In this document: positions 15,942-18,197 of the stretch, in pieces
Position numbering within the stretch: the first letter of the stretch is position 1
How the letters are laid out: each line of letters opens with the position of its first letter
Notes under the pieces: model-generated
What the model was told of the DNA's origin: nothing
The model's input: only the letters and a program-made list of their open reading frames with translations
Database searches by the model: none
Program-made: the position numbers and the translations under genes
Assembly (NCBI GenBank): GCA_045631185.1
Contig: JAZQUH010000015.1
Coordinates: 7,346-71,345, forward strand
Origin: Alphaproteobacteria bacterium
GTDB taxonomy: Bacteria > Pseudomonadota > Alphaproteobacteria > CAAHEQ01 > UBA3637
Reading direction: 5' to 3'
Length of the DNA stretch: 64,000 nucleotides

Positions 15942-18197
15942 ATGAATAAAAAAAACACATCTCAAATCGGCAGAACGCTATTTGAAACAATTCTTGTTCT
16001 TATTGTAATGGGTATTATATCTATTGGTGTTTATAAAATTTATACCATAGTCGTTAAAAAATCCGCCTCTCATAATTTATCACGAGAAATTAATACACGT
16101 GTCGTACAGTTACGCCATCAAGCAATGACATCTCAAGGTATTCAGCCTGTAACTTTAGAGCAAGCATTGGTGCGTGTTAATTCGAAACAAAGCGGTTCAG
16201 GATTGCCCATACAAGTTCAACCAGAAGCCGAAAGTTTTAAATTAATTATTGGTAGCGGTGATTACCCTTTAAAATTAAATGTGTGTGAAAATGTGTTAAA
16301 CGAATATCAATTGAATTCAAAGATATGTTTTTTATCAGGAGAATGTAAAGACTTGACAGGAGAACTTATATTTTCAAATATTTGTAATCCCTATACCTCT
16401 AATCAAGACGATGAAATCATTGAACCAATTGATTGTGGGGCTCACTCATACCAAGTCGGTCGAAACTGTGTTTGTGAAGATGGTTATAAAAATTGGACAG
16501 AAGGAGAAGGATGTTCTGAAGGGTGTTTTAACAATGGATCATCGTGCATTCCGTGTACAGAACCTTATCTTGACTGGGTTGACAACGAATCCGACTGCGC
16601 AGAGTGTTCCAACCGAAAAGTTGTACGTTATAAGTTTCCGTACAATGGTGAAGAAATCACGGAGTTATATTGTCAAATAAAACAATGTCCATCGGGTTAT
16701 TTCCCAGATTTTTTGGGGGATTGTAATCCATGCGAAACACGATATTCTATATCGTATAGAAGAGAGGATTGGATCGCTGATGACGAGCATTTCGATGGCG
16801 CTATTTCAACCATAGAAGATGCACAAGCCGCTTGTGCCTTATGTGATAGTACACCTACACCACGTATATTTGACGCCAATCGAATGCTGTGTTTACCAGA
16901 TTGTACGGGAGAAAATATTTTTTCAGATTCTTCTGGTTCATGTCGTGATTGTACTTATATGTATCCTGTGTCTGCTTCCGATGAAGAATGTGCAAGATGT
17001 GGCAATTTGCGACAAATGTTCAACGGAGCCTGCGCTATAAAAGATTGTGGACCAGGAAAAATTCATAATACCAATGGATATTGCTATTCTTGTTCAAGTG
17101 TTAGTTCAATAACAAATACTGGTTTTAACGATTGTGGTAATTGTACAGATATGTTTACCGCTACAAATGGTAACTGTTATAAATGTAATTACAGTTCTTC
17201 GATAGCTGCCAACTCTGATCAATGTGCAAGATGCAGTAGTTCACGAGAAATGTATGGGGCGTATTGTGCTTTGAAGTGTAATGCAGGTTATTATAGAGCA
17301 AATGGAACTGGATCATGTACACAATGTGGTAACAGACAATATGTTGCTCCAAATAAAACTTCTTGCCAAACCTGCCCTGCTGGACAAACGCATAATTCAA
17401 ATCATACGGGGTGTCAAAATTGTCCTGTCTCAACGACATTGGGAGACTGTGGTTGTTCTGCAGACAAAGTTCCCGATGGTAATGGAGGATGTCAACCGGC
17501 TTGTACTTCTTACGCTAATTCTTCAACGACGGTAAGAAATGGTTATCAAATCTCTGGTACTTCTTGCTATTGCGTCAATGGTTATACTTTAAATGCTGCA
17601 AAAACAGCATGTGTGGAAGAAGGAGACACCTGTGCACCTGGGGTGTGTATGACATGTACAAATGGAACACCCGCATTCAAACCTTCTGGAACTTCTTGTG
17701 TACAGGCTGGAATATCGGGTACGTGCACCCAATACGGACAATGTATTCCATCTGGAACTTCATGTTCTTCCTCAACGAGTTGCCCTTCTGGATACTTTTG
17801 TAATTATGGCGGTACTTATGGTAACTATGGTCAAGGATATTCTGCTAATATATGTGAAAAAATAACAGCACAAACAAAAACAATCAATGGAGTAACATAT
17901 TATTATAATACTTTAACTGATTTAAAATCTTGGTGCCGTCCAGCCGATGGCGGAAAGAATTGCACGTGGGGATATTTGCCATGGAATGGAGCAGACAGTT
18001 GGTGTAAAAGTCAAGGGAAACGATTACTGACTATGGCCGAATTGCAGAGTATACGTACAAATTTGGCTTCTGACTTACCAAACGCAACAAACACTTATTG
18101 GTGTTCGGATGGTTCGGTCAATATATCAAATGGATCTACAGGTACTTTAAATCGAAAAGATGGTTATGCGAATGCCGGTGCAGTTGTTTGTCGTTAG
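15942..18197 (+). CDS. Large cysteine-rich modular protein: type IV pilin-like N-terminus, Cys-rich repeats and a lectin-like C-terminal module
   Basis: MNKKNTSQIG/RTLFETILVLIVMGIISIG has the class-III signal layout (Gly-1, Glu+5, hydrophobic helix). Repeated CxxC / C..CP.G units. C-terminal W..ADSWCKSQGKRLLTMAELQSI...YWCSDG. Confidence 0.75.
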   Translation: MNKKNTSQIGRTLFETILVLIVMGIISIGVYKIYTIVVKKSASHNLSREINTRVVQLRHQAMTSQGIQPVTLEQALVRVNSKQSGSGLPIQVQPEAESFKLIIGSGDYPLKLNVCENVLNEYQLNSKICFLSGECKDLTGELIFSNICNPYTSNQDDEIIEPIDCGAHSYQVGRNCVCEDGYKNWTEGEGCSEGCFNNGSSCIPCTEPYLDWVDNESDCAECSNRKVVRYKFPYNGEEITELYCQIKQCPSGYFPDFLGDCNPCETRYSISYRREDWIADDEHFDGAISTIEDAQAACALCDSTPTPRIFDANRMLCLPDCTGENIFSDSSGSCRDCTYMYPVSASDEECARCGNLRQMFNGACAIKDCGPGKIHNTNGYCYSCSSVSSITNTGFNDCGNCTDMFTATNGNCYKCNYSSSIAANSDQCARCSSSREMYGAYCALKCNAGYYRANGTGSCTQCGNRQYVAPNKTSCQTCPAGQTHNSNHTGCQNCPVSTTLGDCGCSADKVPDGNGGCQPACTSYANSSTTVRNGYQISGTSCYCVNGYTLNAAKTACVEEGDTCAPGVCMTCTNGTPAFKPSGTSCVQAGISGTCTQYGQCIPSGTSCSSSTSCPSGYFCNYGGTYGNYGQGYSANICEKITAQTKTINGVTYYYNTLTDLKSWCRPADGGKNCTWGYLPWNGADSWCKSQGKRLLTMAELQSIRTNLASDLPNATNTYWCSDGSVNISNGSTGTLNRKDGYANAGAVVCR

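Follow-up and report, generated by a model that had tools for sequence, protein, structure and literature searches.

The gene examined here lies in a 64-kb window (64,000 nucleotides) of contig C15 from an alphaproteobacterial genome assembly of 0.99 Mb (42 contigs, 76% complete). An open reading frame (ORF) at positions 15942 to 18197 on the + strand was confirmed, and its product is a cysteine-rich protein of 751 amino acids (aa). The frame is unbroken over the 751 codons, and a Shine-Dalgarno sequence rated as strong, AAGGAGAGG (15931 to 15939, + strand, by sequence reading), lies 2 nucleotides 5' of the ATG. The GC content of the gene (0.36 to 0.40) is similar to that of its flanks. The protein contains 65 cysteines, 60 of which fall in residues 115 to 638, and cysteine makes up 8.7% of its residues compared to a median of 1.3% for this genome's ORFs of 200 aa or longer. 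The cysteine rhythm CxxC-x(11-14) is regular across residues 191 to 494, and the cysteine motifs that an initial annotation of the window had quoted were recovered exactly (CARCGNLRQMFNGACAIKDC at residues 350 to 369, CARCSSSREMYGAYCALKC at 428 to 446, and CTQCGNRQYVAPNKTSCQTCPAGQ at 459 to 481). No tandem or long direct DNA repeats were present inside the gene, indicating that the protein-level repeats are old and diverged. Judged by its cysteine content, its conserved position and sequence in related genomes, and its ratio of nonsynonymous to synonymous substitution rates (dN/dS), the ORF clearly appears to be a real, functional gene and not a chance reading frame.

The leader peptide MNKKNTSQIG (15942 to 15971, + strand) ends in an invariant glycine at position -1, the predicted prepilin peptidase cleavage site, and continues as RTLFETILVLIVMGIISIGVYKIY (the junction was also given with RTLFETILVLIVMGIISIGV after the same leader). 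The mature protein would start with RTLFE, followed by a hydrophobic helix. A class III signal consists of a short hydrophilic leader ending in glycine, a glutamate at +5, and about 20 hydrophobic residues, and the layout reported in the initial annotation holds in each of these respects, with Gly10, Glu15 (+5), and the hydrophobic stretch all found. S7, Q8, G10, and E15 are invariant across five orthologues. The N-terminal 164 residues are just 34 to 53% identical among the orthologues despite the invariant G-1 and E+5. A run of eight adenines (15948 to 15955) lies in leader codons 3 to 5 (AAA AAA AAC).

The leader is followed by a pilin module, from residue 11 to approximately residue 150 (15972 to 16391, + strand), with arginine at +1, glutamate at +5, and cysteines at 115, 129, 135, and 148. 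AlphaFold2 predicted a helix at residues 13 to 61 and four strands (90 to 94, 98 to 103, 130 to 135, and 140 to 145), with a second helix (112 to 125) between the strand pairs. The predicted local distance difference test score (pLDDT) was 70 to 83 over residues 40 to 150 of an otherwise poor full-length model (pLDDT 51), which was built from five sequences and in which just the pilin module and some of the stalk are usable. The N-terminal 150 or so residues align with paralogues in the genome, including pilin-only proteins of 132 to 137 aa that end in Cys...Cys. When a family profile of the N-terminal region, made from the 751-aa protein with its orthologues and paralogues, was compared with all PDB sequences, the 13 matches listed were all type IV pilins. 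TcpA, a type IVb pilin, was the best match (E = 6.2e-5), with an aligned stretch that spans 116 positions (profile positions 12 to 127) and extends into the head domain, and the lower matches were CofA, PilA, PpdD, PilE1, MshA, and geopilins. The proposal of a prepilin-type N-terminus is thus borne out by both the conserved motif and the profile matches. We therefore classify the N-terminal module as a type IV pilin module that has diverged and is nearest to the type IVb class.

The stalk that follows the pilin module begins with one copy of the unit CG-x-NA/HS-x-Q-x-G-x-C-x-C-x-x-GY-x-NW-x-EG-x-GCS at residues 165 to 192 (16434 to 16517, + strand), defined by orthologue alignment; the orthologues hold one to four copies of this unit (CG..A.Q.G..C.C..GY.NW.EG.GCS). 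The CxxC-x(11-14) repeats occupy residues 195 to 521 (16524 to 17504, + strand) and resemble TNFR and NCD3G repeats, with lengths and contents that differ between orthologues through insertions and deletions. The adjoining cysteine-rich segment, residues 522 to 599 (17505 to 17738, + strand), is conserved at 71 to 79% identity in orthologues P0002 to P0004. Residues 421 to 496 align with the cysteine-rich domain of metabotropic glutamate receptor 7 (mGluR7; E = 2e-4), and Foldseek placed the same residues on mGluR cysteine-rich domains with probabilities of 0.9 to 0.99 and root mean square deviations of 2.4 to 3.7 Å over about 57 residues. The repeats had been called eukaryote-like, which is accurate for the cysteine pattern and the local fold; neither membership in a eukaryotic repeat family nor evidence of transfer was found. 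Hidden Markov models (HMMs) for GCC2_GCC3 (PF07699) and furin-like repeats reported no match at E ≤ 10 on the isolated stalk (residues 165 to 637), and assignment of the stalk to GCC2_GCC3 was rejected. The matches below cutoff were NCD3G (E = 0.021; 15.1 bits against a cutoff of 38.9) and TNFR_ELAPOR1_6th (E = 0.031). The stalk thus shares the CxxC...C...C spacing of the TNFR, NCD3G, and ephrin-receptor-like (GCC2_GCC3) repeats of eukaryotic receptors, together with the mGluR7 match, but it lies under all Pfam cutoffs and shows no sign of common descent with them. A transfer of these repeats from a eukaryote to a bacterium was likewise rejected, as the similarity is at pattern level only (E = 2e-4 to a single cysteine-rich domain), the GC content is flank-like, and the relatives are exclusively bacterial.

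A small cysteine knot, C-x6-C-x5-C-x2-GYFCNYGG...C (residues 600 to 637; 17739 to 17852, + strand), always stands directly before the tip domain, and the conserved tip unit begins with it at residue 600. Alignment positions C9, C15, G18, F20, C21, and C39 of the knot are near-invariant, and 11 of 28 members gave subthreshold matches to Lustrin_cystein. In the C-terminal tip module, residues 638 to 751 (17853 to 18194, + strand), a WW-like beta meander of three strands (TINGVTYYYNT) leads into a compact domain of predicted C-type-lectin/Link-like fold, and the previously quoted string TINGVTYYYNT...WNGADSWCKSQGKRLLTMAELQSI...YWCSDG was found at residues 647 to 723. The AlphaFold2 model of residues 600 to 751, made with a 28-sequence alignment, was confident (pLDDT 88.3; predicted template modeling score 0.85). 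Most of the 50 PDB matches listed by Foldseek for the tip belong to the C-type-lectin-fold superfamily. The best was the TSG-6 Link module (probability 0.96, E = 4.3e-3), and the others included LYVE-1, the C-type-lectin-like domains (CTLDs) of the mannose receptor and Endo180, the C-terminal domain of Bdellovibrio Bd2740, poxvirus A35, A33-like proteins, FGE, EgtB, and the DUF1566-type C-terminal domain of Legionella Lcl (8q4e; E = 0.11). Cys688 and Cys750 are invariant and are placed like the alpha1-beta5 disulfide of that fold. A lectin-like fold of the tip, as the initial annotation had proposed, is therefore probable, although the structural scores are modest. The tip resembles the TSG-6 and LYVE-1 Link modules, CTLDs, and Lcl/DUF1566 in the predicted fold of residues 638 to 751, in the helix-turn pattern W-x-x-A-x-x-W-C...G-x-x-L...E-L, and in its invariant cysteine pair; it differs from them by the WW-like meander and cysteine knot ahead of the domain, by the lack of HMM membership, and by the lack of EPN, QPD, and WND tripeptides.

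A phmmer search with residues 638 to 751 against 1.84 billion representative proteins returned 81 proteins. About 45 of these contain the whole module, C-terminal every time, in host proteins of 125 to 1749 aa, and the shorter matches cover just the TINGVTYYYN hairpin in repeat proteins. A profile search with the tip placed struthiocalcin, a CTLD, below threshold at E = 0.23, and HMM matches in the same direction, likewise subthreshold, came from the tip relatives: one of 40 matched Xlink (E = 1.8e-4), one of 28 matched Lectin_C (E = 0.029), and two of 28 matched FGE-sulfatase (E = 0.005). At least 16 of 40 checked carriers have a prepilin-type leader with arginine after the glycine (G/R), and others have ordinary Sec or lipoprotein-type signals. 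Because its carriers are split between these signals, the tip module is, on its sequence distribution, a mobile extracytoplasmic domain that appears to move between pilin-type and conventional export contexts. Carriers of the cysteine knot and CTLD-like tip with Sec or lipoprotein signals were P0031, P0035, P0039, P0040, P0043, and P0074.

The gene is under purifying selection, with an overall dN/dS of 0.22. The value was 0.22 for residues 1 to 60, 0.53 for residues 61 to 164, 0.12 for residues 446 to 599, and 0.10 for residues 600 to 751, compared to 0.027 for lepA. The identity to the L007 orthologue was 41 to 50% in the pilin module and 79 to 84% in the C-terminal half, and the pilin head (residues 61 to 164) was 41% identical against 84% for the tip. 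Other proteins are closer to those of L007 (flanking LepA, 97.8%; ParC, 97.6%; outer membrane protein [OMP]-like protein, 92.5%). The pilin head, not the tip, is thus the fastest-evolving part of the protein. A rapidly changing carrier with a conserved tip runs opposite to the usual assumption about adhesins that face immune pressure.

The initial annotation had made its reading depend on a prepilin peptidase and a filament assembly system in the genome, and both were found. A Peptidase_A24 protein of 239 aa is encoded at C2:10453-11172. An operon at C39:120173-127825 encodes TcpQ, a secretin with a lipoprotein-type signal, an R64-type PilO (PAP_PilO), a T2SSE ATPase of 649 aa, and a T2SSF platform protein, and by its domain content it is a complete-looking type IVb gene set, the only type IVb machine seen in the genome. 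It was also correctly noted that the 751-aa gene lies away from pilus machinery: contig C15 carries no pilus-machinery gene, and the T2SSE, T2SSF, and A24 matches are on C39, C34, C40, and C2. Two DsbA-like Thioredoxin_4 genes are present. Relatives of the tip module were detected in alphaproteobacterial metagenome-assembled genomes from gut samples (Hadza human gut and roe deer abomasum) by a contig scan seeded with a six-sequence subset of the tip alignment; a profile scan of genome contigs with the full-length alignment of the 751-aa protein gave no match. Genomes of the same family are 0.7 to 2 Mb. The assembly size, the family genome sizes, and the sources of the tip relatives show that the host belongs to a small-genome, gut-associated, uncultured alphaproteobacterial lineage.

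The gene had been described as an orphan, which proved wrong: a whole-genome scan found 32 ORFs with the same leader type, G/(R/K)(S/T)xxE plus a hydrophobic helix, amounting to 4.7% of the assembly, and the site that the gene occupies is common to its relatives. The +1 residue is arginine in 31 of the 32 and lysine in one, and glutamate is at +5 throughout. The ORFs range from 92 to 1510 aa (most are 360 to 1510 aa), and many are cysteine rich. The tandem genes at C12:8396-8887 and C12:8968-9468 (- strand) encode pilin-only paralogues of 132 and 137 aa with the same leader and a C-terminal cysteine pair; these are candidate major pilins of the type IVb system. Several family members are cut at contig ends (C1:13644-13967, C9:1-278, and C14:14931-15344) after a near-identical 5' module (leader MQNLRKTNE(S/T)G, then RSMVEMLGVLAIIGVLSV...). 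Since such repeated modules break the assembly, the genome probably has more than 32 copies. The N-terminal subtype of the 751-aa protein is restricted to a few species of the genus, and the wider Arg+1 pilin-like family was seen in this genome family alone, with no member detected in the 32 further families of the class that were sampled.

The window contains another family member, at 25152 to 26411 (- strand). It encodes 419 aa with 24 cysteines, has the leader MMVKNKTNESG followed by RSMVEML, and carries the C-terminal motif WWAAENWCKAQG, of CTLD-like type. A (CA)9 tract at 26523 to 26540, with 0.01 expected by chance in the window, lies inside the leader region upstream of this paralogue. 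It is the lone (CA)≥6 tract of the window, and the 751-aa gene, unlike the paralogue, lacks a (CA)n leader tract. A search of the 751-aa gene for a repeat switch, of (CA)n or another type, found none.

Homologues of the 751-aa protein are few: four were found among 5.8e9 proteins. All four, on readable contigs, are syntenic and lie in a slot between the OMP-like gene and lepA. At least five related genomes or contigs carry a gene in this slot; within the genus, the occupant in G019 is an ORF of 886 aa with 82 cysteines. The occupants share the N-terminal subtype VQLRHQA(L/M)TS.GI, vary in repeat content, and bear at least two tip types whose sequences contain a CTLD-like motif. G003 and G015, whose LepA proteins are 99% and 94% identical to that of the window, have an empty slot; there, the distance from the OMP-like gene to lepA is 101 to 130 bp, and the shared intergenic parts align cleanly across the gap.

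Taken together, we consider it fairly probable that the gene product is a modular type IV pilin, in which a carrier pilin module bears grafted adhesive modules. We infer display of the protein on a pilus, as well as its cleavage by the peptidase, its incorporation into the filament, its tip position, the formation of its disulfides, any lectin activity of the tip, and the class of its ligand. The class III signal would insert the product into the inner membrane, and the stand-alone A24 prepilin peptidase would cut it after Gly10. The pilin module of about 150 residues may then be taken up by the single type IVb machine of the genome (TcpQ, lipoprotein secretin, PilO, ATPase, and platform), in which the protein would most likely serve as a minor pilin that sits at the tip and initiates assembly, comparable to TcpB and CofB. 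The pilus would thereby present a stalk of about 450 residues, rigid and rich in disulfides, that is made of CxxC, TNFR-like repeats and ends in the cysteine knot and the C-type-lectin/Link-like domain. This tip may bind a gut ligand of host or microbial origin, which is probably a glycan or glycosaminoglycan.

The many functions that simple type IV pili acquire are attributed to modular pilins, and the known examples carry database-recognized domains. They occur widely, amounting to over 1,200 proteins that fall into 264 architectures (PMC8179133), and include two from Streptococcus sanguinis, PilB, which bears a vWA module, and PilC, whose module is a concanavalin-A-like lectin (PMC8179133, PMC9934059). 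The 751-aa protein resembles these two in having a small class III pilin module with grafted adhesive modules that are not pilus specific, one of lectin type, and in its predicted tip location. It differs in its host, a diderm alphaproteobacterium that has a type IVb machine, and in its graft, which is much larger (about 600 residues of CxxC-rich TNFR-like repeats and a CTLD/Link-like tip that lacks an InterPro or Pfam signature). Moreover, the +1 residue is arginine or glutamine, and the family has more than 30 members, compared to one or two per genome for PilB and PilC. Type IVb minor pilins form tip complexes (PMC10191384). TcpB of the Vibrio cholerae toxin-coregulated pilus and CofB of the enterotoxigenic Escherichia coli pilus CFA/III, which are themselves thought to start assembly and cap the pilus, share with the 751-aa protein the type IVb context (TcpQ, a lipoprotein-type secretin, and a PilO-type protein); the best PDB matches of the pilin module are the corresponding TcpA and CofA. 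They are likewise large minor pilins that retain Glu5 and combine a pilin domain with C-terminal domains. However, the gene for TcpB or CofB is part of the pilus operon, with a single such gene per system, whereas here the gene is on C15, the operon is on C39, and 32 ORFs bear the leader. The extra domains of TcpB and CofB are beta-repeat or beta-sandwich structures that are not cysteine rich, and no similarity was seen beyond the pilin module. The Pfam and NCBIfam models tried miss the signal, the stalk, and the tip, so that surveys built on InterPro, such as that in PMC8179133, would probably overlook proteins of this class.

Several results weigh against the modular pilin reading. PF07963 (N_methyl) and TIGR02532, to which a prepilin would be expected to belong under the earlier annotation, gave no match to the 751-aa protein, whole or as three isolated pieces, in the Pfam and NCBIfam scans. 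Its sole pilin-type HMM match, to ComGD, was weak (E = 0.017); the paralogues scored 13.5 to 19.7 bits on TIGR02532 against a cutoff of 16.3, one passing and the others falling just under. The Foldseek search with the full-length model was led by designed alpha/beta proteins, mGluR cysteine-rich domains, and a mastigoneme protein, and it placed C. difficile PilA1 at rank 44 (E = 0.33); it says little about the pilin question. Arginine at +1, glutamine in orthologues, is atypical, the prepilin peptidase consists of the A24 domain alone, and the gene lies outside the pilus operon. One machine would have to handle more than 30 bulky subunits, and a 751-aa subunit would have to pass the secretin. 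DsbB (PF02600) was not found in the 76%-complete assembly and is consequently given no weight. For the tip, all Foldseek matches had E values above 1e-3 (4e-3 to 0.5), with TM-scores of 0.3 to 0.65. PF00059, PF00193, and PF07603 gave no match at E ≤ 10 to the whole protein or the isolated C-terminus, and membership of the tip in DUF1566 or Lectin_C, as had been suggested, was rejected. EPN or QPD together with WND are the Ca2+- and carbohydrate-binding motifs of C-type lectin domains, and none of the three was found by direct reading in residues 638 to 751. Of the earlier interpretation as a whole, three elements stand, namely a carrier of pilin type, a tip of probable lectin-like fold, and machinery in the genome; the named-family memberships and the orphan status do not.

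A distinctly less probable explanation, and in our estimate an unlikely one, is that the class III signal serves general export or display instead of pilus building. The cleaved proteins would together make up a cysteine-rich, variable coat or binding array on the surface without long filaments, held in the envelope by their alpha1 helices, assembled in short pseudopilus-like stubs, or released via the secretin. The archaeal "bindosome," whose sugar-binding proteins carry prepilin signals, offers a comparison. The 32 leader-bearing ORFs, at 4.7% of the assembly and with most encoding 360 to 1510 aa, far exceed the need of any pilus, and a single type IVb machine was seen. The near invariance of Arg+1, the peptidase with an A24 domain alone, and the occurrence of the tip module on proteins with ordinary Sec signals also fit a display signal. 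However, glutamate at +5 is strictly conserved and a full pilin head is kept, with the homology to TcpA reaching into it, which argues for subunit-subunit packing in a filament, and the small pilin-only paralogues could serve as major pilins.

There is little likelihood that the product is an ordinary N-terminally anchored (type II) inner membrane or periplasmic protein in which the G...E motif is a coincidence or a relic, unconnected to the pilus system. Such a protein would account for the failure of every curated pilin HMM on the 751-aa sequence, for the lack of linkage to pilus genes, and for the absence of convincing pilins among the Foldseek matches of the full-length model. It would not account for a motif that is invariant in all orthologues though the N-terminal domain around it is poorly conserved (41 to 53% identity), nor for a family profile that matches pilins only in the PDB, and the peptidase and machine are present. 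That the ORF is nonfunctional, either a decaying accessory gene or spurious, is very improbable indeed. The empty slots of the close relatives G003 and G015 and the scarcity of homologues (four among 5.8e9 proteins) point in that direction, against which stand the intact 751-codon frame with its strong Shine-Dalgarno sequence, the intact syntenic orthologues in at least five genomes or contigs, the dN/dS of 0.22 overall and 0.10 in the tip, and the confident model of the tip fold.

The expansion to more than 30 genes in a tiny genome suggests that pilin-borne, lectin-like attachment or surface variation is central to gut life in humans and ruminants. The tip module is compact and confidently modeled and could be expressed and screened for ligands. 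We also entertain, as a speculation that is rather unlikely to be right, that the Arg/Gln+1 prepilin signal is a general display ticket for a large, fast-turnover repertoire of CxxC-rich, lectin-tipped surface proteins on or through the single type IVb machine. Gut protists carry CXXC-rich variant surface proteins, and the repertoire of at least 32 genes (4.7% of a genome of about 1 Mb) would then be their bacterial counterpart. The 751-aa gene would be a member lacking the (CA)n tract, and perhaps not switched on and off, in a gain/loss slot by lepA, with a head that evolves faster than its tip.

The left border of the slot is the divergent OMP-like gene (15264 to 15827, - strand), which encodes 187 aa with a signal peptide and the C-terminal sequence ...KLKYIF. 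This protein had no Pfam match at E ≤ 0.01, and its assignment as an OMP comes from sequence features alone; the gene is kept beside the slot across the genus at 37 to 89% identity. The right border is lepA (18245 to 20032, + strand; Pfam LepA_C and others in orthologous loci), preceded by a promoter-like site, TTGACA-17-TAAAAT, at 18210 to 18238. An imperfect direct repeat flanks the 751-aa gene, TATGAT(AGTC)TGACAAAA at 15912 to 15929 and TATGAT(T)TGACAAAA at 18204 to 18218, and the downstream copy overlaps the -35 box of the lepA promoter-like site. The empty slots of G003 and G015 contain a single copy of the equivalent region. The repeat could mark a gain/loss junction or reflect chance in AT-rich DNA. 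On contig C39, a block of minus-strand ORFs of 96 to 641 aa (C39:128252-136727) lies directly 3' of the type IVb operon, and its arrangement suggests phage genes.

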